This document shows positions 2,842 to 39,078 of a DNA stretch of 64,000 nucleotides, piece by piece; position 1 is the first letter of the stretch; each line of letters opens with the position of its first letter. The DNA comes from Actinomycetota bacterium (lineage in GTDB: Bacteria; Actinomycetota; Thermoleophilia; UBA2241), in assembly GCA_003132585.1 (NCBI GenBank), contig PKYG01000095.1:21931-85930 (forward strand), written 5' to 3'. A model generated the notes under the pieces. That model did no database searches, was not told the origin of the DNA, and saw only the letters and a program-made list of their open reading frames with translations. The translations under genes and the position numbers were made by a program.

Positions 2842-3156
2842 ATGAGTATCCCGAACACAGGCGAGAGGGCCACGCGGCCGACCCATCCGGGCGAGATGCT
2901 GCGCGAGGACTTCCTGCCCGACTACGATCTCACGGTCTCCGGACTGGCCGAGGCGCTGGGCGTCTCGCGCCAGTCGGTCAACGAACTGCTGCGCGGTCGC
3001 AGGGCGGTCAGCCCGGCGATGGCGCTGCGTCTGTCGCGCCTGTTTGGCAACACGGCCGAGTTCTGGCTCAATGCGCAGCGGGCTGTGGATCTCTGGGACG
3101 CGGCTGAGGCGATCAAGACCGAGGTCGAGAGCATCAAGCCGCTGAGGGTCGCGTAG
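2842..3156 (+). CDS. higA: HigA family antitoxin (XRE-type HTH, addiction module antidote protein)
   Basis: 104 aa. Motif PTHPGEMLREDFL...LGVSRQSVNELLRGRRAVSPAMALRLSRLFGNTAEFWLNAQ is typical of HigA. ATG 1 nt after the higB-remnant stop. Confidence 0.8.
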   Translation: MSIPNTGERATRPTHPGEMLREDFLPDYDLTVSGLAEALGVSRQSVNELLRGRRAVSPAMALRLSRLFGNTAEFWLNAQRAVDLWDAAEAIKTEVESIKPLRVA

Positions 3157-3528
3157 CCGCAAGTTTGAAGTGCTACACCGCCGTGCCCGGGTCATCCGCT
3201 GGCGGCTCGGGCGACACGCTCTCGGGGGTCTGCTCCAGGGCGCACCTCTCCTGTTCTCTGCGCGCAAAGGGCCGCTCGGCGCGGCCCCTTGCCCAGGTTC
3301 GACGGCGTCGCTCCAGGCCTCCGTTCAGGCCGCCTTCGTCGCCGCGCCGGACACGTTGAAGCGCCGCGAAGCGGACTCGCCCTCGTCGAACCCGCGGCCT
3401 CCTCCTGCTTGCCCGGCATCACAACGGATCGTGTGCTGGCCGGCGTCTCCGGCCGACGCCACTTCGACAGCCGTCGAATCGTCAGCCCTAGCCCGGCCTC
3501 GTTCGTTCCAATAGGGTAGCGGGGTGAC

Positions 3529-4416
3529 ATGCCTCAGGCGATCGGAGTCAGAGTGAGCGCTCACCGCTTTGGACCGACCATCATCGAGGTGGACGGCCTC
3601 TCCAAGCACTACGGCGATGTGCGTGCAGTCGATGATGTCAGCTTCAGCGTGGCCGAGGGCGAGATCCTCGGCCTCCTCGGCCACAACGGCGCCGGCAAGA
3701 CGACGACGATCCGCATGCTCACGGGGCGGGCGCGGCCGACAAGCGGGCGCGCGCTCATCGCCGGGCATGACGTCGTGCACGAGCGCGAGCGCGTGAAGCC
3801 GCTCATCAATCTCGTCTTCGAGGAGCAGAATCTCTACGAGCGGCAAACGGGGCGCGAGAACCTGGAGCTGTTCGCCAAGCTCTACGGCGCGCCATCGGCG
3901 CGCGTCCCGGAGCTTCTCGAGCGCGTCGGCCTCACGGACGCGGCTTCCCGCAGGGTAAGGACCTACTCCAGCGGCATGAAGCAGCGGCTGCTCATCGCCC
4001 GGGGGCTGGTGAACGATCCCCGAGTCCTGTTTCTCGACGAACCCACCAAGGGACTCGACCCATCGTCGGCCCGTGACGTGCGCGGCATCATCCGCGACCA
4101 CGCCCGCGATGGCGCCACGGTCTTTCTCACTACGCACTACATGGAAGAGGCGGACGAACTGTGCGACCGCGTCGCCTTCCTGGCCGCCGGCAAGATCGTC
4201 GCGCTCGACACGCCGCGTGAGCTCAAGCTCCGCTACGGCGAGCGCACTGCCGACGTGCTGTTGCGCGACCGGACCGAGCACGAGGTCCGCCTCGACGAGG
4301 GCGCGGATGCCGCCCGCCTCGAGGCGTGGATGGCCGCCGGCGAGGTGCTCACCGTGCATTCCCGCGAGGGCACCCTCGAGGACGTCTTCGTGAACCTGGC
4401 CGGCAGGCCGCTGTGA
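3529..4416 (+). CDS. ABC transporter ATP-binding protein
   Basis: Walker A GHNGAGKTT, signature SSGMKQRL, Walker B VLFLDEPT. Confidence 0.9.
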   Translation: MPQAIGVRVSAHRFGPTIIEVDGLSKHYGDVRAVDDVSFSVAEGEILGLLGHNGAGKTTTIRMLTGRARPTSGRALIAGHDVVHERERVKPLINLVFEEQNLYERQTGRENLELFAKLYGAPSARVPELLERVGLTDAASRRVRTYSSGMKQRLLIARGLVNDPRVLFLDEPTKGLDPSSARDVRGIIRDHARDGATVFLTTHYMEEADELCDRVAFLAAGKIVALDTPRELKLRYGERTADVLLRDRTEHEVRLDEGADAARLEAWMAAGEVLTVHSREGTLEDVFVNLAGRPL

Positions 4417-5504
4417 ACCTCTCACGCATCACCGCAATCTACGGCAAAGACCTGCGCGACGCGCTGCGAGACTCGCGCCTCATCATCGCCGTCCTCATGC
4501 CGCTGCTCATCGGCCTTCTTTACAGCTTCATTTTCAAGGACGACACGAAGCCGACCGGCAAGCTCGGCGTGGTCGCGTCCGCGTCGACGCAGTTGCCGGC
4601 TGCTCTGCACGCGGCGACGAAGGCGGCCCTACAGTTGAAGGTGCAGTCCTTTGCCGATCAGGCGGCCTTGACCCTGCAGGTGCGGGACAAGAAAGTGGAC
4701 GTCGGCTTGGTGGTCCCGGCCGGCTTTGACAGCGCGCTGAAGAGCGGCGCCTCGCCGAAGCTCACGGTGATACTGCCTGCCTCGCCGAGCTTCGGCGGTG
4801 ACTACGTGGCGGCGGTTCTCGACCGGGTGACGCAGTCGCTCGCGGGGCAGGTGCCGGCGGCGACCATCGCGCTGGTGACGCTCCCCGCCACGGCCGGGAC
4901 CGCCGACTCGGCACTCGCCGCGCTCGGTGTGCGCAAGACGTTCGTGCTCGTGGCCGTCATCCTCATGCTCGCCATGATCGCCGTCTACGCGCTACCGGCA
5001 GTGCTCACTGAGGAGACCGAGAAACGGACCGTCGAGGCGCTCACCCTGATCGCTTCCGACGTCGAGGTGATCGTCGCCAAATCGCTGTTCGGCCTCACGT
5101 ATTGCGTGATCTCCGTGCCGCTGATGCTGGCGATCACCCGGGTGGTGCCCGAGAACCTGGCGCTCTTCGTCTCCGCCATCGTTCTGACCTCTGTGACCTT
5201 GGTCGGCCTTGGCCTGCTTCTGGGCGGGCTGATGCGCACTCAGACGCAGCTCAACACCTGGAGCACCGTCGCCCTTCTCCCCCTGATCGTCCCGGCCATC
5301 GTCGTTGGGCTGCCTGTGCCGGGCCGGGTCGAGGCGGTCGTGTCGGTCATCCCCACGGCGCAGACGATGCGGCTCGGAATGAATGCTCTCGCCGGCCGCC
5401 AGCTGTTCGGCGCGGAGTGGCTCTCGTTTGCGATCATCCTCGGCTGGGCGGTGGCCGCCTACGGCCTCGTCTGGTGGCGCCTGTCGCGGCAGGAGGCCGC
5501 CTAA
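4413..5504 (+). CDS. ABC-2 family transporter permease
   Basis: GTG start overlaps the ATPase stop (GTGA). Six predicted TM helices. The in-frame ORF extends upstream to 4326, but only the part from 4413 looks coding. Confidence 0.75.
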   Translation: MNLSRITAIYGKDLRDALRDSRLIIAVLMPLLIGLLYSFIFKDDTKPTGKLGVVASASTQLPAALHAATKAALQLKVQSFADQAALTLQVRDKKVDVGLVVPAGFDSALKSGASPKLTVILPASPSFGGDYVAAVLDRVTQSLAGQVPAATIALVTLPATAGTADSALAALGVRKTFVLVAVILMLAMIAVYALPAVLTEETEKRTVEALTLIASDVEVIVAKSLFGLTYCVISVPLMLAITRVVPENLALFVSAIVLTSVTLVGLGLLLGGLMRTQTQLNTWSTVALLPLIVPAIVVGLPVPGRVEAVVSVIPTAQTMRLGMNALAGRQLFGAEWLSFAIILGWAVAAYGLVWWRLSRQEAA

Positions 5505-5670
5505 ACGCCTTGCTTGGGCGTCAGTTGAGACCGGCGTCCCTGCGCCGCAATCCCCAAGTGCTTGCATTCATTGTCGCTTGGGGGTAGACCAATCACCATA
5601 CGAGACTCCTGACCTGAGCAACGCTCAATAATATCCGGGTCTTTCAACCGCCGATCCAGGCACGAAAAGC

Positions 5671-6105
5671 TTAGGCTTGAAGCAATGCCTGTAGCTTCTC
5701 GATATCGATGCCCTTGGCAAGCCTGAGCTTCCTCGGCAACCCGCCTTTTGGGTTCGCGACGAGCAACTCAGCGCCGCTTTGCCCTCTCCGACCGAGCGTG
5801 ACATCGACCAGTGGGACGGCGATGACTCCGCTTGGGTCTGGTTGGAACGGGCGTTTGATTCGACCGAAAAGGACACGCCCTGGCGTTATGCCAACGTACC
5901 ACTGCGTTTCGAGGAACAGTGCCAAAAGAGGACCGAACATCGGGAGCACAATCGACCATGAGAGTAAGAACCTCACCGCAGCCGGCGCCCTGAACTGGGT
6001 CACAGCGCTGAACCAGCGCAACTCCTCATCCGGCTCGAGGTTTGGCTTGAGGGCTTCGCGCATCAGTTCGACGTTCGCTTGAATCCGGTCTGCTAGCTTC
6101 CCCAC
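5671..6105 (-). CDS. Hypothetical protein (144 aa) with one hydrophobic segment. Lower GC than its surroundings.
   Basis: ORF with non-Arg-rich composition and a single predicted TM (FLLSWSIVLPMFGPLLALFL). A bacterial-PH-like fold is only a guess. Confidence 0.45.
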   Translation of the reverse strand: MGKLADRIQANVELMREALKPNLEPDEELRWFSAVTQFRAPAAVRFLLSWSIVLPMFGPLLALFLETQWYVGITPGRVLFGRIKRPFQPDPSGVIAVPLVDVTLGRRGQSGAELLVANPKGGLPRKLRLAKGIDIEKLQALLQA

Positions 6106-6493
6106 GGTGATACCCCTTTCAGATCTGTTGACTGACCTGCCCTCATCTAGTGGTCCACTTCCTATGATAGTCCGATGGCCATCTGCGGCCCAGGAGACGG
6201 TGGACCGTGATCGGCAAGCGAGAAGCCCGGCCGAGCGATCGGCGACGACCCGTTGGCACTTGTGGCCCAGGTCTTGGACTCGTGTGCGGCTACGAAGACC
6301 CCCAGAAGCCTCGCGAGGAGCCGACGCAAGCCGACGCCACCAGAGGCCGTATGGCGCTGCGGGTCGTGCGTGAGACGGCCAGTGGTTTCCGATCCGAGAA
6401 CCGTGACCTCGAGTGGACCGATCTCAGAGGGTCAGGTCAGTCTCTACTCTCGTGATCGGCGAGCGGGCGCCTGGCGCCCGCTCGCCAGGTTTC

Positions 6494-7180
6494 TCAGACG
6501 CTCTCCGTGCGCGCGCGTCCGCACACGCTGCAGAAGCGCTTCTCGTCGTCTGCATAAGCCGTGCCGCATCCAGGGCAGAATCGCACCGGTTCGGCCGGTG
6601 GTGCCACTGCAGTCGGCTCAGCCGGCGGCGAGACCGCCATCGGCGCGTCCGGAGACGAAACTGCCACCTCATCGATCGGTGGCGAGACCGCGATCGGCGG
6701 TGCCGGCTCGCGTGCGGATGTCTCGGTCACCGCTGGCGCCACGGCTGCGTCGCCCGCGCGCGCGACCGTGCTTCTGCCAATCAGCAAGACGCCGAGCAGC
6801 GCCACCTCGACAGCAGCGAGAACGATCACGATGATCAAAACTGCGCTCGGAATCGAAGGGGTATGCTTGGGTGGCGATCCTCCCCCGACCGCAATCTGTG
6901 TCCCCCCTGGGAGTGTCCACTGATCCCCGGAGACCACTATCTTCTGCCACTTGCCCGCGCCCCATATTTGAGTCTCGCCTGAGGACTTGTTCTTCCTGAT
7001 CTCTTGCTGCCCGAACATGCTCATGTTGATGGTGCTGTATTGGTACTTGGGTGACAGAAGAGACCAGACAACAAGGGTGCCGCCCTCTATCACCAGCAGT
7101 GCTATCAAGAGCACCACCAGCTTCTTTCGGTGAGGCGCGACTCGATGAACTAGTCCGCTAAGCAGAGGACTCGATTCCAT
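6494..7180 (-). CDS. Membrane protein with two TM helices, a Pro/Ala-rich linker and a C-terminal zinc ribbon (CPGCG...CSVCG)
   Basis: Strong SD (AAGGGAGGG) 8 nt upstream of ATG 7180. Zinc-ribbon CxxC-x13-CxxC at the C-terminus. The 5' third is AT-richer. Confidence 0.5.
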   Translation of the reverse strand: MESSPLLSGLVHRVAPHRKKLVVLLIALLVIEGGTLVVWSLLSPKYQYSTINMSMFGQQEIRKNKSSGETQIWGAGKWQKIVVSGDQWTLPGGTQIAVGGGSPPKHTPSIPSAVLIIVIVLAAVEVALLGVLLIGRSTVARAGDAAVAPAVTETSAREPAPPIAVSPPIDEVAVSSPDAPMAVSPPAEPTAVAPPAEPVRFCPGCGTAYADDEKRFCSVCGRARTESV

Positions 7181-7412
7181 AAGAACAACCCTCCCTTTGT
7201 TGAGAACGTGCTTGACCGGTTCTTGCTCGATCGTTGGCCGAGGGCAATCATACCAAGGTCCCGGAGCGTGTCACCGATTTTGGGACACCTGCCTTCTGAA
7301 TTCAGTGCAGCACCACATCGCTTCCCGAGAGCCCAGGCTTGCAGGCCTTGATCGGTCTCAGCCTGGCGCACCCACTTACGCAGGGTCTCCGCCGTCATGC
7401 TTCTATCGCGGT

Positions 7413-10166
7413 CTACTTGCCGCGCCGCGCCGCCGGCTTCACCGGGCTGCCGGCCTCGACGATCTTGTACCCGGCCAGCTCGGCGATGTCGGGGTAGTGG
7501 CGGACCGCGTTGCGGTCTTTCTCCTTGTCTTCCTCGCTCAGCGTCGCGTACTGCACGAGACAGGGGTGCTGCTTCGCCTCATCGTCCCTGACCAGGCTGT
7601 GCGACCAGCCGTCGCGGTACTTCTGCTCCATCCAGCCGTCGTGCTCGTACTCGGCCAGGAGCTCCATGTTGGCCTCGATCGCGTTGAGCACCTTGGTCCG
7701 AGACATCGTCGACGGGTGGTCCTTGCTCACCACGGCCAGTCCCACGAAGGCCAGCACGCGCGGGATGCGTGCTGCCGCGGCGATGTTGTCGGCCTTCACG
7801 CCGTCGGGCAGCTCTGCGAAGCCCACGTCGTAGGGGATCGACCAGCCCTCCTTGCGGCACAGCTTCCGGTAGAAGTCGTGCACCGCGGGAGCGAGATCAT
7901 CGCTGCTCATCCTGAACGGGCGGTCGCGATCGACCAGCTCCATGAACTCGTCGTAGTCGACTTGGAGCGAGAGCTGGTCCTCGGGTGGCAGAGCCGACCG
8001 CCTGAGGCCTGGCAGGCCGGCGCCGCCGGTGAGTCCCATGATCGTCTCCAGAGATCGCGCCCCGTGCTCGTACGTGCTGATCTCGAGGAAGGCGGTCAGC
8101 AGCCCGCCGTCGATGTCCATCTCATCGCCTTCGGCGGCCCCGACGAACCCGCCGGTGGCCCGCATCAGCAGGGCGCGACGCACGGGGAAGCAGAGATCGC
8201 GCGGATCGTCGTCGTCGACCCACTGTCGCCGATCGGCAGCGTACTTCTGGCGCCGGTTCGGGCCGGCGACATTCAGGTAGCCGTTCAGTCGGCTGGCGAA
8301 GTCGGGGCCCTTCACGAGCTTGAACTTCTCGAACTTCGTGAGGCCCGTCTGCGCCCCTCCAGCGACATCGTCGCCGGCCGCGCCGCTGGCCTTCGGACGT
8401 ATCTCTTCGCGGGGCGAGAAGTTGGCGAAGTCGTAGCTCGTGCCGCCGGCGAAGACGAACACGCACTTGCCGATCGGGTGCGTGACCTGGCCCTCCTGGA
8501 ACTTGCCGTCCTGCATCGGCGCCAGCAGGTACTGCAGCCACATGTACTCGCGCGAGTCGAACTCGTCCCAGAACACGACCGGTGTGGTGCCCCCGAGGAC
8601 CTTGTCGCGCACCTGGTGGAGGGCGCCGATGAGCTCCCCCGGATCGGAGAACTGCGAGAGGTTGAACTCGAGGATGGGCACCTCGTCGCCCAGTACCGTC
8701 TTGGCGATCTGCTTGACGCCGAACGACTTGCCCGAACCGGGGGCGCCGAACACGGCGATCGACAGGGGCTTGGAGGGACGCGGGTTCCTCTCGTAGCCCT
8801 TGATGAGACGCTCGAGACCGCGCAGGCTCTCGATCTCGACGCGATCGACCGCCAGCAGCTTGCTGAACCTGGCGTAGGGGACCTCGTTGACCAGCGCCTT
8901 GGACCCGAACAGGGCCACCCGCCGCGCCATTCCGTAAAGCGGGCGATCGTCGACGCCACTCTGCTCGCCGGAGACGATCGTCCAGTCTGGGGACTTGCCG
9001 ACCGAGACCACCGCCGCCGGGACCTCGGCGATCCGGTAGCGGCTCGACGGCTTGCACAGGTCGGCGACGACCGGAACGGGCGGGAACCCCTGCTTGGCCT
9101 TGTGATCGTCGTCGCCACCGCCCGCCGCACCGTGACCGACGCGCAGGAGCTGGCGCATGGCCGAGAGACCGCGCATGATGCCACCGCCGATGTCGGCCTC
9201 GCCCTCGTCGGCGCCACTGCAGGTGGCCCTGCTCGTGGCGGCGACATCTGACTTGGCCAGCTCGGCGACGATCGCCGCCACCAGGCACGACATGCCGCCC
9301 CACACTTGGCCCTTGACACCCTTGGCCCAGGCTCCTTCGAGGCCGCCGGGATCGAAGACGAGACGATACCGGGACGTGCCGTCGCTGCGCGTGCTGAGCC
9401 ACAGGGCGCCATCGGTGCCCAGGCCGATGATCAAGTGCCGGCACCGCGTGAGGTCAGAGATGCTCTTGTTGAGCGCCAGCTCCTGCAGCAGGTCCTGGGC
9501 GGTGTGCTCCCAGGAGAGTCCCTCGGTGATGCTCACCTCTTCCTGACGCAGATCGGACGCCGACACCACGACGACGAGCTTTTCGCAGAACTGCCGGCAG
9601 GCCCTTCGCCACAGGTCGCCCTGGGCCACAGGAGCGGACGTCTTGAGCACGACCCAGTCCACGGCCGCCGACTTGCCGTCGCGCATCTCCTCGGGCCAAG
9701 CGGATTCGTTTGTGCGGTGGCGAAAGCCGAGCGCGCCGTCGTCGAGCACCACGATCGAAGCGGGCGCGGTCGTGCGCGCCGGCGCGCCGGCATAGCGCGT
9801 GGTGCGCTCGACGCTGTCGCCGTAGCCAAGGTTGCCGGTGACGCGCCAGACGTCACCCTTCCGCTTCTCTCCGGCGGGACAAGGGGTCAGCAGCGAGTAG
9901 GACTGAACTGGTCTGCTCGCCGGCGTGGGGGCCATGCCAAACTCGACCGTGAAGGGCTCGGGTGTGGCGGCGCCAAGCGTCTCGAGGATCTTGAAGAGCA
10001 GCTTGGCGCCGCCGGCCTCCTGGTGGATCGCGGTGCCCTGCATCGCGTGTGCATAGGGTTTGTCGCGCGTGCCCTCGTAGATGTGGTGGTCGACGACGAC
10101 GTCACCGGCGACCACGACGGTCTTGGTGCGAGCCTTTTGCTCGGTGCGAGCTTGCTGCTTGGCCAC
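7413..10166 (-). CDS. Multidomain protein: N-terminal PfkB/ribokinase-like domain (GAGD catalytic motif apparently degenerate), AAA+ ATPase, then C-terminal tandem RyR domains
   Basis: PfkB-like N-terminus VVVAGDVVVD...GGAKLLFKILETLG...LIIGLGTDGALWL. Walker A FGAPGSGKSF, Walker B VVFWDEFD, sensor-1 FVFAGGTS. RyR repeats EHDGWMEQKYRDGW...QHPCLVQYATLSEEDKEKDRNAV. Start chosen at GTG 10164-10166 with a GGGGGAGAG SD. The ORF stays open to 10454, so the true start may be further upstream. Confidence 0.7.
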   Translation of the reverse strand: MAKQQARTEQKARTKTVVVAGDVVVDHHIYEGTRDKPYAHAMQGTAIHQEAGGAKLLFKILETLGAATPEPFTVEFGMAPTPASRPVQSYSLLTPCPAGEKRKGDVWRVTGNLGYGDSVERTTRYAGAPARTTAPASIVVLDDGALGFRHRTNESAWPEEMRDGKSAAVDWVVLKTSAPVAQGDLWRRACRQFCEKLVVVVSASDLRQEEVSITEGLSWEHTAQDLLQELALNKSISDLTRCRHLIIGLGTDGALWLSTRSDGTSRYRLVFDPGGLEGAWAKGVKGQVWGGMSCLVAAIVAELAKSDVAATSRATCSGADEGEADIGGGIMRGLSAMRQLLRVGHGAAGGGDDDHKAKQGFPPVPVVADLCKPSSRYRIAEVPAAVVSVGKSPDWTIVSGEQSGVDDRPLYGMARRVALFGSKALVNEVPYARFSKLLAVDRVEIESLRGLERLIKGYERNPRPSKPLSIAVFGAPGSGKSFGVKQIAKTVLGDEVPILEFNLSQFSDPGELIGALHQVRDKVLGGTTPVVFWDEFDSREYMWLQYLLAPMQDGKFQEGQVTHPIGKCVFVFAGGTSYDFANFSPREEIRPKASGAAGDDVAGGAQTGLTKFEKFKLVKGPDFASRLNGYLNVAGPNRRQKYAADRRQWVDDDDPRDLCFPVRRALLMRATGGFVGAAEGDEMDIDGGLLTAFLEISTYEHGARSLETIMGLTGGAGLPGLRRSALPPEDQLSLQVDYDEFMELVDRDRPFRMSSDDLAPAVHDFYRKLCRKEGWSIPYDVGFAELPDGVKADNIAAAARIPRVLAFVGLAVVSKDHPSTMSRTKVLNAIEANMELLAEYEHDGWMEQKYRDGWSHSLVRDDEAKQHPCLVQYATLSEEDKEKDRNAVRHYPDIAELAGYKIVEAGSPVKPAARRGK

Positions 10167-10420
10167 GACTCTCCCCCCGTCCCGCGATGCTCTCGGTCTA
10201 GCGGCTCGGCGCGTCGGGCGCACCAGCCGGATGAGCTTGCTGCAACGGCATTCTCTCGCACTCCAACGGGGCGCGGTAGTCCTTGTGACTGTTGGTGCCG
10301 GGGTCGGGCGGTCGACCTTGGCGTAAGAGGCGCCAATCGGGTTAGAATCCCCTCGGCCGGTCGTACCGTTCACATCCTGTGACCAGTCGCCGTCGAGCGA
10401 AGCGAGCGATGGAGGTTTGT

Positions 10421-12235
10421 ATGCCCGAGCAGGCACCGCGAACATCGCGGACACTGCCGCTGCGCCCCCGCCCGGTCTGGCGCCGGCGTCTGGCTCGATT
10501 CTGGTTGACCTACCAGTGGCCGATCATCATCGCCGTCTGGGTCTGCTCGATGGTCCTTGGCTACGTCGGGTTCTGGAAGTACTACCAGCAGTTCCCGACC
10601 GAGAAGCCGCACGCGTGGGGCGACCTGATCTACTACACCATGCAGCTCGTGCCCATGATCTCCGGCGCCCTGCCCCACGTGGTGCCTTTCGAACTCGAGG
10701 TGGCGCGCCACGTGCTGCCGATTGTCGAGGGCTACACCGGCATCGTCGCCCTGGTGATCGTCTTCTCCAGCGAGGTGAAGCGGCTGCGCCTGCGCACCCT
10801 GCGCGATCACTTGATCGTCTGCGGTCTGGGAAGCAAGGGCCGGTACCTCGCCCGCCAACTTCGGGAGATGGGGCTGCCGACCGTGGCCGTCGAACGCGAT
10901 CCCGGCAACCCGGCGATCGAGGAATCCCGTGACGAGGGTGTGATCGTGCTGACCGGCGACGCCTCCGACGAGCGGCTCCTGGCGCGTGCCGGTCTGGCGC
11001 GCGCCCGGATGCTCGTCGCAGTCTGCGACGACGACACCAACGCCCGGGTGGTCGCTGCGGTGCGTCATCTGGTCAGAGCCGGGCGCCGCAGCCCGCTGGC
11101 ATGCAGCGTGCACATCGTCGAGCCGCGGCTCTACGAGCTGCTGAGCCAACAGGAGCTGGAGCCCGAGCAGGCCGGTATCCTCCGTCTCGACATGTTCAAC
11201 GTGTTCGACCTTGGCGCACGAGCGATGTTGGCCCAGCATGGGCCCGCGGCGGGCGAAAGCGCCGGTCCCGCGCACATCCTGGTCGCGGGGCTCGGCGGTC
11301 TAGGACGCAGCGTCGTGGTGTGGGCCGCGCGCAACTGGCACCCACGGTTCCGTGCCACCGGCGAGCGCCTGCGCATCTCCGTCGTGGACAGCGACGCGCG
11401 CGTCTGGATCGACGCGCTCTGCGCGCACTACCCGCGCCTCGCGTCTGTGTGCGCGCTGGTCCCCCACGATGTGAGCGTGGACAGTGGCGAGTTCCAGCGA
11501 GGAGCGTTCCTCTTCGACGACGAGGGCCGTAGCGACGTGAGCGTCGCGTTTGTTTGCCATGACGATGACCAGACCAGCGTCGCCGCCGGTCTCTCGCTCG
11601 CGCACAGCCTGCGAGACCAGCAGACGCGCGTCGTCGTGCGCGTTCGCGACGGGGCGGGTCTGGCCGTGCTTCTGCCGGAGGCAGGCAGCGGCGACCCACG
11701 CCTGGCCGCGTTCCCGCTGTACGAGCGCACGTGCACGCCGGAGCTGGTGCTGGGCGGCATGCACGAGTCGCTGGCGCGGATGATCCACGACGAGTACGTG
11801 AGGCATCAGACGGCTCGCGGCGAGACGCCGGCGGTCAACCCGTCGCTGCGCCCGTGGGACGAGCTCCCGCTCGAGCTCCAGGAGGCCAGCCGGACGCAGG
11901 CCGACCACATCGGTGTGAAGCTCGCGGCCGCGGGCTGCGGGCTCGAGCCGATGACGGACTGGGACGCGGACCTCTTCGCGTTCACGCCCGAGGAACTGGA
12001 ACGTCTCTCTGTGATGGAGCACGAGCGCTGGGTCGACGACCACGCGCGCGCGGGCTGGACGCAGGCGACGGGCGCCAAGAACGTGACGAAGAAGACGCAC
12101 CCGTCGATGGTGCCGTGGGACGACCTCTCAGAGCCCGAGCGCGAGAAGGACCGCGAAGCCGTGCGCTCGTTGCCGGTCTTTCTCGCCCGGACGGGCTTTC
12201 AGGTCTACCGGCTGGCGGCTCCGAAGGCCGGATGA
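10421..12235 (+). CDS. Membrane protein with two TrkA-N/RCK (NAD-binding Rossmann) domains and C-terminal tandem RyR domains
   Basis: Two N-terminal TM helices. RCK motifs LIVCGLGSKGRYLARQL and ILVAGLGGLGRSVV. RyR repeats MEHERWVDDHARAGW...HPSMVPWDDLSEPEREKDREAV. GGAGG SD 5 nt before ATG 10421. Confidence 0.75.
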   Translation: MPEQAPRTSRTLPLRPRPVWRRRLARFWLTYQWPIIIAVWVCSMVLGYVGFWKYYQQFPTEKPHAWGDLIYYTMQLVPMISGALPHVVPFELEVARHVLPIVEGYTGIVALVIVFSSEVKRLRLRTLRDHLIVCGLGSKGRYLARQLREMGLPTVAVERDPGNPAIEESRDEGVIVLTGDASDERLLARAGLARARMLVAVCDDDTNARVVAAVRHLVRAGRRSPLACSVHIVEPRLYELLSQQELEPEQAGILRLDMFNVFDLGARAMLAQHGPAAGESAGPAHILVAGLGGLGRSVVVWAARNWHPRFRATGERLRISVVDSDARVWIDALCAHYPRLASVCALVPHDVSVDSGEFQRGAFLFDDEGRSDVSVAFVCHDDDQTSVAAGLSLAHSLRDQQTRVVVRVRDGAGLAVLLPEAGSGDPRLAAFPLYERTCTPELVLGGMHESLARMIHDEYVRHQTARGETPAVNPSLRPWDELPLELQEASRTQADHIGVKLAAAGCGLEPMTDWDADLFAFTPEELERLSVMEHERWVDDHARAGWTQATGAKNVTKKTHPSMVPWDDLSEPEREKDREAVRSLPVFLARTGFQVYRLAAPKAG

Positions 12236-12264: not shown

Positions 12265-13722
12265 TTACAGCACGCGGAAGTACCTCCAGACCGACGTCGT
12301 CTTGGCGTGGTCCGCGTCGGCGTGCACCGCCCGCATCCGCATGCGTCCGGGCGCGCCCAAGCGCCAGCTCGTCATGTACAAGGTGGCCGTAGTCGTGTTG
12401 CGGTATGCCTGGGCGTACTTCGCGTCAATCTGCTTCCACCTGCCGCCCGAATAGCGTTGCAGGAAGACTTCGGTGTGGCTGGTCTTGTTCTGCGCGGTCG
12501 AGTGCATGGGCTTGAGCGTGCCCCAATACGTCTGTGATTTCGTGTTTGGCATCCAGCGTCTCACCAGCGAGGGCACGACCGGCGGTGTGAGGGAGGCGCG
12601 CGACGTGACAGACTTGATGTCGTCGTCGTAAAACAGCGAATCCCAACCGTTTATGTTTGACCACAGGTATTCGCTGTCGCCCCGGAAGACCACCCCGAAC
12701 CAGGTCTTGCGCACGATGTTCACCGAGGTCGAGAATGCGCCTGTCGTACAATCGATGGTACCGCGCGACGAGAAGTTCTTGTTGTCCGTCGATGCGTAGA
12801 GGTCAACGGACCGATTGGTGAGCAAGTTTCCCCACGTGTCGGTCAGCGTGCCCGCGATGGTCACCGGCTTGTTGTAACCGACGACTGCCGGCCCGGCAGT
12901 CATGCTCACATACACAGGGCGCAGCCCAGATTGCACGCTGACCTCGTCCACGTAGGCGCCCTGGCCTGTGTTTGTCGCGTCGCTTACAAAGCGGAAGGCG
13001 ATCCACACCTGGCTTTGGCCACAGACGTTGCCTATCGCGGGGACGTTCGTGAGATCGAAGGCGTCCCTGATAAAGCCCTTTGGCCCCGAATACGACGTAT
13101 AACTGAAGTTGGTGCCGTCCACCGAGACAAGCACCTGGAGTGGGTCGTACTTCTCTTCCGTGTCCACGAACAGGCTGTACCAGAGCGTCGCGCTCGTGAC
13201 GGTCGAGAGATCGAACGGTCCTGCGATCATCCAGGCATTCATGTTGTTGATGTAGGGGCCAGGCGCATCTATCAAGCTCCCCGCGCAGTACGCCGAGTAC
13301 GAGCCGGCGAAGAACGTCCGGTAGTAGCTGGAGGAGAGGTCCCAGGTCGGAGTGCCAAGGCGTGTCCAGTTGCTCATGCCGTTCTCGAACCCGTCGTAGA
13401 AGATCGTGTTACTCCAACCAAACTGGTGCGCGACCGCCGAGGCGGTCGCGGCCGGGTTGAGCACACCCGGCTTCAGTTTCTGGACTCCGCCGCCGCCGCC
13501 CAGGGGCACCAGCTTGAGATGAACCGCAGGCTGTAGTGAGCCGCTCACCACCGGTCTCTTCGTCGGCGCTGGGCCTGCGTACGCGCTCGCTGCGAGCAGC
13601 GCCAGGACGACGAACGACAGTGCGGCAACGCCGCCGGCCCGGAAGAGTGAAACGGCCCGCCGCCGTCGGTGCGTACGATCGCCGGGTGCACGAATCGCGG
13701 GAAGTGTGCGGAATGGGTTCAT
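12265..13722 (-). CDS. Secreted hypothetical protein (486 aa) with an N-terminal signal peptide
   Basis: Signal peptide MNPFRTLPAIRAPGDRTHRRRRAVSLFRAGGVAALSFVVLALLAASAYA. Thr/Ser/Trp/Tyr-rich beta-like composition. The upstream in-frame extension to 14031 looks non-coding. Confidence 0.6.
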   Translation of the reverse strand: MNPFRTLPAIRAPGDRTHRRRRAVSLFRAGGVAALSFVVLALLAASAYAGPAPTKRPVVSGSLQPAVHLKLVPLGGGGGVQKLKPGVLNPAATASAVAHQFGWSNTIFYDGFENGMSNWTRLGTPTWDLSSSYYRTFFAGSYSAYCAGSLIDAPGPYINNMNAWMIAGPFDLSTVTSATLWYSLFVDTEEKYDPLQVLVSVDGTNFSYTSYSGPKGFIRDAFDLTNVPAIGNVCGQSQVWIAFRFVSDATNTGQGAYVDEVSVQSGLRPVYVSMTAGPAVVGYNKPVTIAGTLTDTWGNLLTNRSVDLYASTDNKNFSSRGTIDCTTGAFSTSVNIVRKTWFGVVFRGDSEYLWSNINGWDSLFYDDDIKSVTSRASLTPPVVPSLVRRWMPNTKSQTYWGTLKPMHSTAQNKTSHTEVFLQRYSGGRWKQIDAKYAQAYRNTTTATLYMTSWRLGAPGRMRMRAVHADADHAKTTSVWRYFRVL

Positions 13723-14046
13723 CGAACGTACCGCCTCTCCTGAAACGTCGCGTAGACCGGCGGATTGCGCGGCCCCCCGCTTTACAACCCCGTCTCGCCG
13801 AGAACCGGCGAGACCCGTCCCGCAGTCAACACGGCGGGACCACCCTGAGTGGAGATCCTGGTCTCGTCGGCCGGCTGCTGGTCCGACGTCCAGCGTGCGC
13901 CTTTTATACGCGCTTTGGTGACCAGACTCAAGTGCGGCGGACCGCGGGCTCGACCTTGACGCAAGGAATCGTGCGGCACAGGATGTGAGATGGTCGCACG
14001 CCCCGTGCCACAGGGTGTGGGTTGAGGACAAGGGGGTTTCCGGGCC

Positions 14047-14460
14047 GTGGCCACAACGGACACACTACCGGGTTCACCGCTGACGAGGAGAGCGTTTCTG
14101 CTGACCTCCCTCGGCGCTTTGCTCGCCCTGGTGGCCGGTCGCCGCTGGAGCGAGGCGAGCCACCGAGTCACGAACCGGGACGCGGCACGGCCGCGACGCG
14201 CCGACAACCTCAGGGAAGAAGCTTACGGCACGGGGCTCGCACTGCGACCGACGCCGGTCGATCCCCGAGGACCGGTCTTTCGGCTGAACGAACCGGCGGC
14301 GCTCATCTGGCGCAACATCGACGGGCGGCGCACGATCGACGACCTCGCCGCCCTCCTCGTTGGTCGATATGGCGTCGCGCAGGCGAGGGCGAGGGCCGAC
14401 ACACGGGCCTGCCTCCAGGCCTTCTCGGGGGCGGGTCTCGCGTTCGGTCTCGACGGGTAA
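14047..14460 (+). CDS. PqqD-family (RiPP recognition element-like) protein with an unusual 60-aa N-terminal extension carrying a Tat-like motif
   Basis: PqqD core PVFRLNEPAALIWRNIDGRRTIDDLAALLVGRYGV...ADTRACLQAFSGAGL. N-terminus SPLTRRAFLLTSLGALLALVAG resembles a twin-arginine signal or membrane anchor. Confidence 0.6.
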   Translation: MATTDTLPGSPLTRRAFLLTSLGALLALVAGRRWSEASHRVTNRDAARPRRADNLREEAYGTGLALRPTPVDPRGPVFRLNEPAALIWRNIDGRRTIDDLAALLVGRYGVAQARARADTRACLQAFSGAGLAFGLDG

Positions 14461-14485
14461 TGCGCGTGGTCGGGGAGTCGCGGAC

Positions 14486-15904
14486 GTGACCAGATACCAG
14501 CTCGCCACGGAGATCTTCTCGCTGCCGCGAGGGCGCGAGCACATCGTCTACGCGCCCCTGCAGCGCACCAGCCTGCTGGTCAACGACGCCGCCCTCAACC
14601 TGCTGGCCGACATCGCCGCCGAACGCAGCCTGCCACGCGACAGCCGCACGCGCGAGGTGCTCGACCTGCTGCTCGAGCTGGAGCTCATCGGGCCGAAGAG
14701 CGGCCGGCGGGGGGCCGGCCCGACAGGGCCGACCCGGCAGCCGGACGCTGCAACGCCGCATGAGCGCCCTGCAGCCGACGTCACACCGATCCCCCTTCGC
14801 CCTACGGCCTGCACGCTCTTTCTGACCACGGCCTGCAATCTGCGCTGCCTCTACTGCTATGCGTCCGGCGGCGACCGGCCACGTCATCTCGACGAGCGGG
14901 TCGCGCGCGACGCCATCGACTTCATCGTGAGCAACGCCGTCGAGAGCGAGGTCGGCGAGGTCACGGTCGCGTTCCACGGCGGCGGCGAACCGACGCTGGC
15001 CGGTGAGACGCTCGTGCACTGCGTCGAGCACGCTCGCCGGAGATGCCGGGAGCACGGCCTGGAGCTCTCCACCGGTGTCGCGACCAACGGTGTGATGGGC
15101 GACGGCATGCGCGACTATCTGGCGGACACCATGACCTCGGTCATGGTGTCGGTCGACGGGCCGGCGGCTGTGCAGGACCGCCTGCGGCCGCAGGCCAACG
15201 GCGGTCCTTCTTCGGCCGCCGTCGAGCGCACACTCGAGCGCCTTTCGGCGGGCGCCTGCTCCGTCGGCGCCCGCCTCACCTGCACGTCGGACACGATCGA
15301 GCACGTGCCGGCGGCCGTGCGCCACCTGGCCGCCGACTACAAGCTCGCGACGATCCACCTCGAGCCGCTGTTCGCCTGCGGCCGCTCGCTCCATCATGAC
15401 CTACAGCCGCCGAGCGCCGACCGCTTCGTCGAGACTTTTCGCCGCTGCCGGGCGCTCGCCGCCGAGCACGGCGTGACGGTGGTCTACTCGGGCGCCAGAC
15501 AGCCGTCGCTGGCGCACGCCTTCTGCCAGGCCAGTGCCCCAAGCTTCAATGTGACGAGCGACGGTGACATCACTGCCTGCTACGAGGTCACCGGCCGTGA
15601 CGATCCCCGGGCCGAGACGTTCATCTATGGCGCCTACGACCCTGCGCAACGCGCGTTCGCCTTCGACGACGCGCGCATCGCCGCGCTGCGGCGCCTGACC
15701 GTCGACGATGCCCCGCGCTGCGCGCTCTGTTTCTGCAAGTACCACTGCGCGGGCGACTGCGCGTCGAAACGCCTCTATCCGGGCGGAGAAGAGTCCGTCA
15801 TCGCACGCTGCCAGATCAACCGGCGCCTCACACGGGACCAGCTCGAGGACGCCCTCATGGGTACACCTGTGCCCGCCGGCGTGGAAGCTCTGACGAAAGG
15901 CTGA
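14486..15904 (+). CDS. Radical SAM / SPASM-domain peptide-modifying enzyme with its own N-terminal RRE-like region
   Basis: CNLRCLYCY (CxxxCxxC). C-terminal SPASM cysteines CALCFCKYHCAGDC. N-terminal YQLATEIFSLPRGREHIVYAPLQRTSLLVNDAALNLLADI is PqqD-like. Confidence 0.85.
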   Translation: MTRYQLATEIFSLPRGREHIVYAPLQRTSLLVNDAALNLLADIAAERSLPRDSRTREVLDLLLELELIGPKSGRRGAGPTGPTRQPDAATPHERPAADVTPIPLRPTACTLFLTTACNLRCLYCYASGGDRPRHLDERVARDAIDFIVSNAVESEVGEVTVAFHGGGEPTLAGETLVHCVEHARRRCREHGLELSTGVATNGVMGDGMRDYLADTMTSVMVSVDGPAAVQDRLRPQANGGPSSAAVERTLERLSAGACSVGARLTCTSDTIEHVPAAVRHLAADYKLATIHLEPLFACGRSLHHDLQPPSADRFVETFRRCRALAAEHGVTVVYSGARQPSLAHAFCQASAPSFNVTSDGDITACYEVTGRDDPRAETFIYGAYDPAQRAFAFDDARIAALRRLTVDDAPRCALCFCKYHCAGDCASKRLYPGGEESVIARCQINRRLTRDQLEDALMGTPVPAGVEALTKG

Positions 15905-15908
15905 TCGG

Positions 15909-16466
15909 GTGTCCGACCAAGACCAGATAGACCAGGTGGCGAACGCGGGCGGAGCGTACCAGCCTCCCGAACTCGCGATCGGCGAGAGCGCTTCTGTAGT
16001 CGCATGGGCCGGTGAACTCTTCGCCGATAGTTCGCCCAACGACACACCGACGAGCATACCGATGACAAGCGCGGCGCCCGAGGTATTGCGCTGGAGCGTC
16101 CCCCAACCCGAGTACGACTACCCCGACCCCGAGCTGTTCGTCGCGCCCCAGAATCCCAGCCGCAGGCTGTCCGGACCAAAGACGCCAGCGAAGCAGACGC
16201 ACAAGGCCGGCCACAAGACGGTCGCCCATGCGACCAAGACCAGGCTCACCGGCCACGATGCCTTCGGGGGCTCCCTGTGCACGTGCAACACCGTCTGCAC
16301 CTGCAATGTCGTGTGCACCTGCGAGTCCGTCGCCACCTGCAGTTGCGTCTCGCACACGCCGACCGGCGGCGGCGGGACCACGCCGCCCCCGCCCCCGCCC
16401 CCGCCGTCGTGCACCTGCAACCCGAACTGCTCTTGCCAGGGCTACACGCCCTGTCCTTCGGTGTAG
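15909..16466 (+). CDS. Cys-rich repeat protein (185 aa) with an acidic N-terminal region, CTCN/CTC repeats and a PPPPPPPP tract. Candidate substrate of the adjacent rSAM/SPASM enzyme.
   Basis: GTG 4 nt after the rSAM stop, with a GAAAGG SD. C-terminal sequence SLCTCNTVCTCNVVCTCESVATCSCVSH...PPPPPPPPSCTCNPNCSCQGYTPCPSV. Confidence 0.55.
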   Translation: MSDQDQIDQVANAGGAYQPPELAIGESASVVAWAGELFADSSPNDTPTSIPMTSAAPEVLRWSVPQPEYDYPDPELFVAPQNPSRRLSGPKTPAKQTHKAGHKTVAHATKTRLTGHDAFGGSLCTCNTVCTCNVVCTCESVATCSCVSHTPTGGGGTTPPPPPPPPSCTCNPNCSCQGYTPCPSV

Positions 16467-16472
16467 TAGCAG

Positions 16473-17714
16473 ATGGTCGGTACAACCATGTCGAAGACAC
16501 TCTCGCCGCGATCGATCATCATCGTTCTGGCGTGTGCCGGCATGCTCATGGCCGCGGCCGGGCCCGCCGTGGCGGCAACGGAACATCCATACAATCTCGG
16601 CTGCAAAGCGCTCGCCGCGGGAGACGTGGCGAAAGCGAAGGTCCTCTTCGCGGAGGCTATCAAGCTCGACCCGACCGACACGGACGCCCTCAACAACCTT
16701 GCCGTCTGCTACATGATGACGAACGACTACGGCAAGGCGCTGCCGCTCCTGCAGAAGGTCCTGCGTCTCAACAAGCGATACCGGGGGGCCGACCTCAACC
16801 TCGGGGCCGCCTACATGTTCCAGGCCAGCCCGTCCGATGCGGCGGCGGCGGCGGCGCGGGCGAGCGCCGCCGGTTCGAATGCGGTCGGCAAGCGCGTCAA
16901 GGCGGCCGCCTATCTCAACCTCGGGCTGGTCGCCGCCCAGCAAGGTCGCCTGGACGATGCGAAGACGGCCTTCCTGCAATCGGCGGCGACCGCGCCCAGT
17001 GCGCAGGCCGAGATCGCCCTCGCCTGCGCGTACTGTGCTCTCGGGGACTTCGGGCAAGGCTTCCCGATTTTCGAGAAGCTGGCACAGCCCGGGGCCAACG
17101 CCAAGATCGCCCAGTTGGCAAGCAGCGACCTGGCCGTCGCCTACTTCCAGCGCGGGATGGCGAGGCTGGAGAGACGGGACCTCGACGCCGCCAGGAGCGA
17201 CTTCGTCCAGTCGACCGAGATCGCGGCGAACGACTACGCCAAGTTGGGTCTGGCGCTGATCGACGCCGAGCGAGGGAACCTTCGCGCCGCCGCCACCGCG
17301 CTCGCCGAGATCAGGGACTCGGACGCCTCGCCGCAACTGCGGAGCGCGGCAGTCGAGAACCTCAAACGCTTGAAGGCGATGGCCGAGGGCGACAGCCGGT
17401 GGCTCAAATTACTGATCCTTGTCGGCGGCGGGGTCCTCTTCGCCTGGCAGTACTACTCACTCATGCACGCCGTCCGCGCGCGGCCCCATCGCGGAACGCT
17501 CGGCGCGTTGCAGGTCGTGCTCGGCAGCGTAGTCGGCATCGGGGTCGGCGTCTTCCTTGCCTTGGCCTACGTCGACCCGTTCCGCAGTCCGCTCTGGGTC
17601 TTGCCGGTGGCTGCCGTCGACGCCGTCGTGGTCGTGTTGATGTGGCTTGGCGCGACCGCGAGTTCCCGGGTCGGGCGCCGCGAGTCGCCGACCGAGGTCA
17701 GCGCAGCGAGGTAA
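16473..17714 (+). CDS. Tetratricopeptide-repeat protein with an N-terminal signal peptide and C-terminal TM helices
   Basis: TPR-like repeats (ALNNLAVCYMMTNDYGKALPLLQKVL, AAYLNLGLVAAQQGRLDDAKTAF). C-terminal hydrophobic helices. The start may be ATG 16488 (MSKTL). Confidence 0.65.
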   Translation: MVGTTMSKTLSPRSIIIVLACAGMLMAAAGPAVAATEHPYNLGCKALAAGDVAKAKVLFAEAIKLDPTDTDALNNLAVCYMMTNDYGKALPLLQKVLRLNKRYRGADLNLGAAYMFQASPSDAAAAAARASAAGSNAVGKRVKAAAYLNLGLVAAQQGRLDDAKTAFLQSAATAPSAQAEIALACAYCALGDFGQGFPIFEKLAQPGANAKIAQLASSDLAVAYFQRGMARLERRDLDAARSDFVQSTEIAANDYAKLGLALIDAERGNLRAAATALAEIRDSDASPQLRSAAVENLKRLKAMAEGDSRWLKLLILVGGGVLFAWQYYSLMHAVRARPHRGTLGALQVVLGSVVGIGVGVFLALAYVDPFRSPLWVLPVAAVDAVVVVLMWLGATASSRVGRRESPTEVSAAR

Positions 17715-17738: not shown

Positions 17739-18554
17739 CTATCGGGTCACCAAGCCGACGACGATGAGGATGATGACCCACGCCGCCCCGACGCCGACCG
17801 CAACCGCGAACGTCTTGGGGTGGCGAGGAAGCCGCAGCAGCTTCGCGGATGTCGCCGGCGTGTACGCCGCCTCCCCCCCGATCTGGCCAGACGAGACTGC
17901 GACAGCCGCGGCGGGGGTGGCAGGCACGGCCATCTGCTGAGGCTTGGGCGCAGCGGGCTTGGGTGGTGGAGAAGGTTTGGGCGCAGGCGTGCGCGCCGGC
18001 GCCGGCGCAGCCGACTGCGTGTCGACGGGGGGCGCTGTCGGACTTGTGTGCGCGGGGGGCGGGGCCGGAGGTGTGTCCGCTGGCTCCGCCGGTCTCTGCG
18101 TCCGATCGTCTGTCCGCCCCTCCTCGGGCAGCGGCGGCGCCTCGGTCGTCGTCGGCTCGAGCAGGACCGCGATCGCCTCGCAGAGCCGAGCGAGATGGCG
18201 CTCGAGGGGCAGCGTCAGGGCATCGAGCCAGTGCTGGCCGGCGAGGTAGTACTCGAGCCAGTCACTGGGCACTACATCCTCGACACGCAGCGGCAGGATC
18301 GGCAGCGCGCACGAGACGGCCCGGTCGACCTCGCGCTGGACCTGGACGGAGGCGTTCGAGGCCGCCGAGAAGACAAGGACGAAGACGCGCGCCGAGTGGA
18401 TGGCTTCGATGATCATCTGCGCGAAGTTGTGGCCCGGCAGGACGTCGCGAGGAGCGATCCAGCAACGGATGTGCTGGCGTTCGAGCGCTGCGCAGACTGC
18501 GTCGCCGATCGCCTTGTTGTCCGACGCGTAGCTGATGAACACATCGTGCGCCAA
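17739..18554 (-). CDS. TIR-domain protein with a Pro-rich linker and a C-terminal TM anchor
   Basis: TIR_2-like N-terminus DVFISYASDNKAIGDAVCAALERQHIRCWIAPRDVLPGHNF...VFVLVFSAASNASVQVQREVDRAV. C-terminal FAVAVGVGAAWVIILIVVGLV. Confidence 0.7.
   Translation of the reverse strand: MAHDVFISYASDNKAIGDAVCAALERQHIRCWIAPRDVLPGHNFAQMIIEAIHSARVFVLVFSAASNASVQVQREVDRAVSCALPILPLRVEDVVPSDWLEYYLAGQHWLDALTLPLERHLARLCEAIAVLLEPTTTEAPPLPEEGRTDDRTQRPAEPADTPPAPPPAHTSPTAPPVDTQSAAPAPARTPAPKPSPPPKPAAPKPQQMAVPATPAAAVAVSSGQIGGEAAYTPATSAKLLRLPRHPKTFAVAVGVGAAWVIILIVVGLVTR

Positions 18555-35985: not shown

Positions 35986-39078
<3,093 letters not shown>

Follow-up and report, generated by a model that had tools for sequence, protein, structure and literature searches.

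Divergent genes for a channel-like RCK protein and an AAA+ protein, both with tandem RyR domains, as possible receptor-effectors of TIR-linked nucleotide signaling

Introduction

Two long genes are transcribed away from each other in the DNA considered here, a 64,000-nucleotide stretch of contig PKYG01000095.1 from an Actinomycetota bacterium (hereafter the window, a high-GC sequence at approximately 66%), and the two predicted proteins both end in a tandem of RyR domains. The question raised by this locus is why a protein with a ribokinase-like fold and an AAA+ ATPase module (A) and a protein built like an RCK-gated channel (B) should carry the same C-terminal module. A preliminary description of the locus proposed that the module is the surface through which A and B interact. 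Our analysis leads to a different answer, which we consider probable on balance: A and B would be receptor-effectors of a nucleotide-signaling system linked to TIR enzymes, with a logic similar to that of Thoeris. RyR-type domains are binders of ADP-ribose-derived TIR signals, and the demonstrations to date concern only phage countermeasures, proteins by which such signals are sequestered or destroyed (PMC13232231; 10.64898/2026.06.04.730250). The coordinates of all features are collected in Table 1.

Results

Tandem RyR units

The Pfam family RyR (PF02026) scores above its gathering cutoff of 27.4 bits in one stretch of each protein, at residues 818–902 of A (58.1 bits, E = 1.1e-15) and in B (47.6 bits, E = 2e-12), and a profile search of the PDB with the RyR domain returned RyR repeats only. 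That each C-terminus holds two such domains, as had been proposed, is borne out by hhalign comparison of repeat 1 with repeat 2 (97% probability and E = 8.5e-11 in A; 98.8% and E = 1e-16 in B) and by the structural models of A and B, which align with the human RyR3 Repeat12 tandem (residues 848–1055) over 170–190 columns. For the B model the target-normalized TM-score is approximately 0.44–0.60 over some 181–189 columns. A tandem pseudo-symmetric unit is thereby found in both proteins.

It is the second repeat that retains the predicted ligand site. When both repeats are aligned with RyDEP, which is gp78 of phage DyoEdafos, its residues H75, W78, H100 and D117 correspond to H842, W845, H867 and D884 of A and to H534, W537, H560 and D577 of B, with the spacing of the four residues in A being the same as in RyDEP and one loop in B being longer by a single residue. 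Conservation at these ligand or catalytic positions is 90% or higher, up to invariance, in the A family (70 homologues) and in the B family. In RyDEP, Trp78 stacks on the adenine and His100 touches the phosphates, and other phage homologues of RyDEP bind the signal tightly without cleaving it; among the eight homologues assayed, which are highly conserved with RyDEP in sequence, 6 bound signals and 0 cleaved them (PMC13232231). The phage protein RyR Tad binds cyclic ADP-ribose (cADPR) and its isomers 3'cADPR and 2'cADPR via equivalent residues (10.64898/2026.06.04.730250).

In repeat 1 of A, His763 is kept, while Tyr stands in place of Trp, the His-Pro loop is absent and Asn794 replaces Asp. 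Repeat 1 of B has His456 and Tyr459, again with no His-Pro loop, and lacks an Asp where RyDEP has D117. Because repeat 2 keeps all four residues and repeat 1 keeps the first His only, each protein is predicted to have one intact and one degenerate nucleotide pocket.

The gene for RyDEP itself lies, in the DyoEdafos locus (L168, 1–1386; L numbers denote our loci), between those for a ribose-phosphate pyrophosphokinase and a nicotinamide phosphoribosyltransferase. This pairing of an RyR domain with enzymes of ribose and NAD salvage is reminiscent, by analogy, of the ribokinase-fold fusion in A.

Channel and RCK domains of B

The model of B (predicted local distance difference test score, pLDDT, of 88.5) consists of a first transmembrane helix (TM1), a short pore helix, TM2, two Rossmann domains and the tandem RyR unit. 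Its best PDB match in a Foldseek search is GsuK (E = 3e-12, up to 526 aligned columns), followed by the TrkA gating ring, MthK and RyR3 Repeat12. Together with the Pfam TrkA_N match, this upholds the earlier view of B as a protein with two TM helices and two RCK/TrkA-N Rossmann domains. In the RCK1 glycine motif, G135-x-G137-x-x-G140, the first glycine is invariant and the other two are at least 90% conserved. The model shows the topology of an RCK-gated channel (two TM helices, a pore helix and an RCK domain), and B has the predicted structure of a ligand-gated channel.

The K+ selectivity filter T-[VI]-G-[YF]-G is not present in B, which reads QLVPMISGALP at the position of TTIGYGD in the family alignment, and Pfam Ion_trans_2 gives no match in B. 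The filter is missing in 26 of the 28 aligned members of the B family; two homologues (P0180 and P0181) keep the canonical TTIGYGD and have the Ion_trans_2 domain. Because GsuK is the best structural match and the filter of these two homologues aligns with QLVPMISGALP, B derives from an RCK-gated K+ channel that has lost its selectivity signature. P0180 and P0181, set against the other 26 members, provide a natural series for selectivity loss in an RCK channel.

Domains and distribution of A

A is a widespread component whose partners are variable. Its full-length architecture of approximately 900 residues recurs in over 479 protein clusters, and a genome scan found homologues in at least 519 species of Actinomycetota, Planctomycetota, Chloroflexota, Acidobacteriota, Bacteroidota and Pseudomonadota, plus one archaeon.

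The description of the N-terminal domain as PfkB-like holds for the fold but not for the sequence family. A fold search with the AlphaFold model of A (from a 70-sequence alignment; pLDDT 83, predicted TM-score 0.85) assigns the ribokinase fold to the domain in its predicted structure. Assignment by sequence failed: Pfam PfkB gave no match at E up to 0.1, and a profile of 14 A N-domains run against the PDB retrieved no PfkB chain with E values up to 10, so that the fold search alone succeeded. The residues GGA at 52–54 are invariant or nearly so in the homologues. The catalytic DTxGAGD motif, with its anion hole and Asp base, is not visible in A. What the homologues conserve there is D272-P-x-x-x-E277-G-x-W280, with G286 and G290 after it, and E277 might take the place of the catalytic Asp. 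It seems plausible that this domain acts as a sensor and not as a kinase.

An AAA+ module is present in A, as had been claimed: both its Walker A motif GAPGSGKS (G474-P476-G477-G479-K480-S481; GxPGxGKS) and its Walker B motif WDEFD (W533-D534-E535-F536-D537) are invariant across 70 homologues. The Pfam AAA match is marginal, at 22.3 bits where the cutoff is 21.2; within the module the Pfam AAA, Torsin and bpMoxR matches are weak, as are the PDB matches to torsin and to the second nucleotide-binding domains of ClpC and Hsp104 (E of 0.003–0.01). The two Walker motifs and the marginal hidden Markov model (HMM) match together place A in the AAA+ family, and three of the four families anticipated from the letters of the locus (RyR in both proteins, TrkA_N in B and AAA+ in A, but not PfkB) are recovered by HMM. 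Four arginines invariant in the homologues (R626, R663, R664 and R704) are candidates for arginine fingers. The segment from the NLSQF strand to the VRD helix is approximately 15 residues shorter than what we take to be the pore-loop region of the second (D2) ClpC domain, and the module appears to be of the Clp/Hsp100-D2 or torsin type, without a pore loop. An NCBIfam scan of A found nothing.

Plasmid carriage is rare: a homologue of A is present on 4 of 72,556 plasmids, which rules out A as a mainly plasmid-borne gene. On plasmid pA of Methylobacterium sp. FF17 (L166, 269–10646), an A homologue lies by genes for a 2082-residue SIR2 protein, a transposase and a helix-turn-helix protein, the first of these being an NAD+-related neighbor.

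Genomic neighborhoods

To describe the context of the two families, open reading frames (ORFs) were called and clustered in 80 A-centered genome loci and 80 B-centered metagenome loci, and cluster HMMs were built; the counts given here are for 63 A loci whose flanks extend for 6 kb or more and for 33 B loci. A full-length B is found within 10 kb of A in 6/63 A loci and an A near B in 9/33 B loci. Both families are rare, which means that this co-occurrence is far above chance, yet it is a minority arrangement. The pairing of A with B, which the preliminary description expected across genomes, is thus non-random but not obligate, and the closest named relatives of A (in Intrasporangium and Humibacillus) have no B. 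Where the two genes are found together they are mostly co-directional, often in one operon in the order A, small SLOG-like gene, B (L051, L080, L125, L129, L141, L158, L159). The divergent layout is kept in one relative with 83% identity in A, where A is divergent from a 135-residue gene, SLOG and B.

The association with TIR genes is more frequent than the pairing itself, with TIR-superfamily ORFs (raw counts) in 32 of the 63 A loci and 17 of the 33 B loci. Of the 76 ORFs of this kind, 55 share the strand of the anchor gene and 40 are no more than 1 kb from it. Pfam TIR_2 was found in seven of eight sampled candidates, the eighth having WD40 families only among the 25 of its 64 matches that were listed. 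The confirmed TIR domains are fused to WD40-like propellers, TPR, LVIVD or a PnrA-like nucleoside-binding domain; in one A-SLOG-B-TIR operon (L159, 8383–10137) the TIR protein directly after B carries such a PnrA/Bmp-like domain.

Further partners in the 63 A loci are DUF4062-NACHT/nSTAND-WD40/TPR proteins (25 loci), membrane SLOG proteins, which have helices at the C-terminus and a weak SLATT_1 match (14), small SLOG-like proteins (10) and RelA/SpoT-TPR-LSDAT SLOG-RyR proteins (5), and at least one partner of these kinds is present in 76% of loci in the A set and the B set alike. Recurring operons include TIR-A-SLOG in Intrasporangium oryzae and A-SLOG-B-TIR-TIR/WD40 (L159, L141). SLOG, SLOG-TM, RelA/SpoT-SLOG-RyR and DUF4062-STAND partners are typical of nucleotide-signaling conflict systems, and in raw counts the surroundings of A and B are rich in TIR, DUF4062-STAND and SLOG genes. 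Of the RelA/SpoT kind is cluster c8 (L079, 7889–10450, and five other loci), in which an 850-residue RelA/SpoT nucleotidyltransferase-TPR-LSDAT SLOG-RyR protein is encoded beside A or B; it is possibly an alternative signal generator or relay.

Close relatives of A differ in their partners. Those with 83% and 75% identity have a DUF4062-STAND gene after A, and the latter also has a separate TIR gene 5.7 kb away. Such turnover among relatives of 75–83% identity looks like that of a defense island, and a type I restriction-modification system is also encoded in the window. In a relative with 80% identity (L161, 2696–7780), A is transcribed away from an operon that has ThiF (E1-like), E2-CBASS and HEAT_2 matches and a gene for a 1193-residue STAND/WD40-type protein, which makes for another conflict-type set of partners.

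The TIR gene of the window

The window contains a TIR gene of its own, which the preliminary description overlooked. TIR domains encoded in or beside A and B loci elsewhere are 44–66% identical to that of the window protein by tblastn and reach 70% by BLASTP, and the window protein has the signature HDVFISYS...IRCWIAPRD...HWLDA in common with its subfamily. The residue which we take to be the catalytic Glu, going by general knowledge of TIR domains, is conserved in most of the subfamily. Members of the same subfamily directly adjoin A or B in other genomes. It is probable from this kinship that the window TIR protein is the signal generator; its link to A and B, which comes from subfamily identity and not from adjacency, is only moderately secure.

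Gene starts and the intergenic region

Both long ORFs are present and divergent, as had been described. The start of A is most likely the GTG at 10166 and not the alternative at 10454, because the G+C content at third codon positions (GC3) drops from 0.89 in the body of A to 0.68 in the extension 10167–10454, the N-termini of A homologues align to a start at 10166, and a ribosome-binding site, GGGGGGAGAG, is located just upstream of this GTG. B most likely starts at the ATG at 10421, which is preceded by GGAGG. With these two starts the divergent control region of 254 bp is real; GC3, homologue N-termini and GGGGGGAGAG together speak against a longer A that would abolish it.

The promoter proposed within this region (TTGGCG...TAGAAT) is unsupported, because its spacer is 19 nt and it does not reach the consensus threshold. 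A consensus promoter scan of 5.7 kb gave one site, no more than expected by chance, and none in 10167–10420. TAGAAT at 10343–10348 is possibly a candidate −10 element only. Short repeats within the intergenic region are chance-like.

Remaining genes of the window

The genes at 12265–17714, between B and the TIR gene, look like a cluster of the type that makes ribosomally synthesized and post-translationally modified peptides (RiPPs). This set is found beside A-B in further contigs (L081, L084, L163, L165), its order recurs in relatives whichever way the A-B cassette faces, and in one relative of A the RiPP-type cluster is on the A side instead; for these reasons we treat them as a neighboring cluster and A-B as a cassette, and set the genes aside as parts of the system.

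On the other side, no small SLOG gene was found beside A in the window by cluster HMMs or tblastn, and the ORFs 6494–7180 and 7150–7398 have no family match. The stretch 5500–7400, directly downstream of A, has lower GC3. The genes at 2842–5504, with a gene for an MFS transporter and one for a DUF6506 protein upstream of them, look ordinary and unlinked to A-B. The DNA between hsdM and hsdR, at about 30–36 kb, is of lower GC content (0.62–0.63) and may hold hsdS and other cargo.

Table 1. Positions of the A and B genes, their predicted domains and other features in the window
Feature	Coordinates	Strand	Basis
Gene A: PfkB-like domain, AAA+ ATPase, tandem RyR (Repeat12-like)	7413..10166	-	ORF, 917 aa
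A divergent ribokinase/PfkB-fold domain, residues ~15-345	9132..10124	-	Fold search
A AAA+ ATPase module, residues ~440-735	7962..8849	-	Walker motifs, weak Pfam/PDB matches
A RyR repeat 1, degenerate site, residues 752-816	7719..7913	-	hhalign against repeat 2
A RyR repeat 2, complete predicted ligand site, residues 828-906	7449..7685	-	Pfam RyR; RyDEP alignment
A-B divergent intergenic region	10167..10420	.	254 bp
Gene B: pore-loop channel, two RCK domains, tandem RyR	10421..12235	+	ORF, 604 aa; Pfam TrkA_N and RyR
B TM1, pore helix, degenerate filter loop, TM2, residues 19-126	10475..10798	+	Model helices 19-57, 66-75, 90-126
B RCK1 (TrkA_N Rossmann), residues 129-273	10805..11239	+	Pfam TrkA_N 1.4e-19; GsuK/TrkA fold matches
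B second Rossmann (RCK2-like), residues 283-445	11267..11755	+	Model secondary structure; GsuK/TrkA alignment over ~400-520 columns
B RyR repeat 1, degenerate site, residues 446-512	11756..11956	+	hhalign against repeat 2
B RyR repeat 2, complete predicted ligand site, residues 520-599	11978..12217	+	Pfam RyR; RyDEP alignment
TIR protein, 271 aa: TIR, Pro-rich linker, C-terminal TM helix	17739..18554	-	Pfam TIR_2 6.8e-21
Secreted protein, weak InhA-like_MAM match	within 12265-17714	-	Weak match
Likely PqqD-type ORF	~14047-14460	+	PqqD annotated in two relatives only
Radical SAM/SPASM-type gene	to 15904	+	Peptide-maturase models below their cutoffs
185-aa ORF	between radical SAM gene and TPR gene, within 12265-17714	+	
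TPR protein	16473-17714	+	
228-aa protein: membrane helices, Pro-rich tail, C-terminal CxxC...CxxC zinc-ribbon-like motif	6494-7180	-	ORF
Small HTH_3 regulator, then ABC transporter ATPase and ABC-2 permease	2842-5504	+	
Type I restriction-modification hsdM	28075-29721	+	
Type I restriction-modification hsdR	35986-39078	+	

Discussion

In the TIR-linked reading that we favor, a TIR enzyme would convert NAD+ to an ADP-ribose-derived signal upon infection or stress. The source of the signal would be the membrane-anchored protein at 17739–18554 in the window and an adjacent TIR or DUF4062-STAND protein elsewhere, and the signal would bind the intact repeat 2 pocket of the C-terminal tandem RyR in both A and B. 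In B, binding would be relayed via the two RCK domains to open a GsuK-like tetrameric pore without K+ selectivity, and the resulting ion leak would depolarize the membrane and lead to cell arrest or death. In A, binding would control an AAA+ assembly coupled to the ribokinase-fold domain, which may bind or phosphorylate a ribose-containing molecule, with A serving as a cytoplasmic effector or a signal processor. What the analysis shows are the architectures, the conserved ligand residues and the genomic linkage; the nature of the ligand, the gating of B, the activity of A and a role in defense are inferred.

Several observations weigh against such a system. A and B are known here from sequence and predicted structures alone. 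The PADLOC models give no meaningful match to A or B, the mad8 match at E 0.005 spanning the P-loop only. The TIR frequencies are raw counts without a control set for the background in these phyla, and 15 of the 63 A loci have no recognizable partner. The window TIR gene is 5.5 kb from B, beyond the RiPP-type cluster, and the gene order from B to the TIR gene is kept in two related contigs, such that their proximity could be plain synteny. A 2025 survey of TIR systems, with its supplements, includes no RyR domains of bacterial proteins and no TrkA or PfkB-fold partners, and names ryanodine receptors solely as the targets of cADPR in animals (10.64898/2025.12.03.692087). Lastly, human RyR3 Repeat12 is present with ATP or ADP in PDB entries 6uhh and 9l9b, which makes an ordinary adenine nucleotide a conceivable ligand.

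This last observation fits a housekeeping role, in which B would be a cation channel sensing ATP, ADP or NAD(H) via its RCK and RyR domains and A a metabolic ATPase or kinase responding to the same energy signal. Such a role is in keeping with the binding of NAD and ADP by GsuK (the best structural match of B), with the crystallization of RyR3 Repeat12 with ATP, AMP-PCP and ADP, with the 15/63 A loci lacking a conflict-type neighbor and with the wide occurrence of A in free-living soil and sediment bacteria. We nevertheless think it unlikely, as the loss of the K+ filter in most B-family members would be odd for a homeostatic K+ channel, and as the tight linkage to TIR, DUF4062-STAND, SLOG and SLATT-like genes and the fast turnover of partners in close relatives are at odds with it. 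The complex imagined in the preliminary description, a physical assembly of sensor-ATPase and effector-channel with paired RyR modules and a PfkB-like domain sensing a sugar or nucleoside, finds some backing in gene arrangement (divergent in the window and in the 83%-identity relative, one operon in other phyla) and in the dimerization of the single-repeat proteins RyDEP and RyR Tad; but each of A and B is already a complete tandem pseudo-dimer with no free half-site, B is found in only about 10% of A loci, and the closest named relatives of A have no B, all of which renders the complex improbable in our judgment. The fact that each protein has a full tandem unit and that A mostly occurs without B means that the shared module is better understood as sensing a common signal, likely of the ADP-ribose type, than as a contact between A and B, and the interaction surface first proposed calls for revision. 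The reading to which we assign the lowest probability of all is that the RyR domains are RyDEP-like glycosidases which cleave cADPR isomers, such that A and B terminate or recycle the TIR signal and the ribokinase-fold domain of A handles the released ADP-ribose. The RyDEP His-Asp dyad is conserved in A and B, and RyDEP itself is encoded beside ribose/NAD salvage genes, but the phage homologues that were assayed (6/8 binding, 0/8 cleaving) point the other way, and with a channel and an AAA+ ATPase as fusion partners a sensor role is more fitting than that of a hydrolase.

Returning to the TIR-linked reading, a bolder version of it can be offered tentatively, as a possibility we would stop short of calling probable: B would be a cation channel gated directly by a TIR-made cADPR isomer via Repeat12, and thereby a bacterial counterpart and possible evolutionary source of the animal link between cADPR and ryanodine receptors; A would represent a new class of signal-activated ribokinase-fold AAA+ effectors; and together with TIR or DUF4062-STAND proteins they would make up a widespread, undescribed family of Thoeris-like immune systems with RyR domains for receptors. 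Direct action of cADPR on ryanodine receptors via Repeat12 has long been disputed, and B, with its 604 residues and terminal Repeat12, could serve as a small model for Repeat12-dependent gating by cADPR isomers. If the TIR-linked reading is true, cellular RyR domains are receivers of TIR signals and the phage sponges mimic a host receptor; two new classes of TIR effector are added, an RCK-gated leak channel and a PfkB-fold AAA+ ATPase; and SLOG, SLATT-like, RelA/SpoT and STAND proteins are joined in one modular network across many phyla.

The earlier suggestion that the system is undescribed stands insofar as no published account of such a cellular system was found, and it has to be amended for the TIR gene of the window and for the TIR/DUF4062-STAND/SLOG context that it left out. 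Full-text searches for a cellular system of RyR proteins like A and B gave just the two phage papers, although an earlier mention in passing is conceivable; two papers of the Aravind group contain no RyR domains of bacterial proteins and no PfkB-fold proteins; and no description of a fusion of PfkB-fold, AAA+ and RyR domains was found in the searchable literature.

Comparison with known systems

Each part of the pair resembles something known and departs from it. A differs from the PfkB/ribokinase families in having no detectable PfkB sequence signature, from the Clp/Hsp100 type in the apparently shorter NLSQF–VRD segment, and from all of these and torsin proteins in the fusion of the two modules with an RyR domain. 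B has the two TM helices, pore helix and two RCK domains of the GsuK/MthK/TrkA group, with GxGxxG kept in RCK1, and differs from it by QLVPMISGALP in place of the TVGYG-type filter and by the extra C-terminal RyR tandem. With the eukaryotic ryanodine receptors B has in common a tandem RyR unit on a cation channel, the Repeat12 of those receptors being a binder of adenine nucleotides; the receptor is a giant six-TM channel in which Repeat12 is peripheral and one of many domains, whereas B is a 604-residue, two-TM protein with the repeat unit at its end.

The likeness to Thoeris is one of organization: genes for a TIR-family enzyme and for effectors with a small-molecule-binding domain are linked, the neighborhoods also include SLOG and SLATT-like partners, and membrane-disrupting effectors are common. 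A channel effector of the Thoeris type (type X) has been reported, and the tandem RyR/Repeat12 that we presume to be the sensor of A and B is absent from the effector list of the same survey (10.64898/2025.12.03.692087). Here the effector roles would fall to a GsuK-like RCK channel and a PfkB-fold-AAA+ protein, DUF4062-STAND takes the place of a simple ThsB-type TIR in many loci, the TIR gene of the window is not adjacent, and a defense role of A-B is putative.

The closest likeness in the sensing module itself is to the phage proteins RyDEP and RyR Tad, with which A and B have in common PF02026, the four ligand or catalytic residues and the RyR3 Repeat12 fold. Both phage proteins are small homodimers with a single repeat, and they defeat immunity by destroying or sequestering the signal. 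A and B are cellular, multi-domain proteins with the repeats in tandem, one site intact and one degenerate, and the fusion of their RyR units to output domains implies the opposite role, that of a signal receiver.

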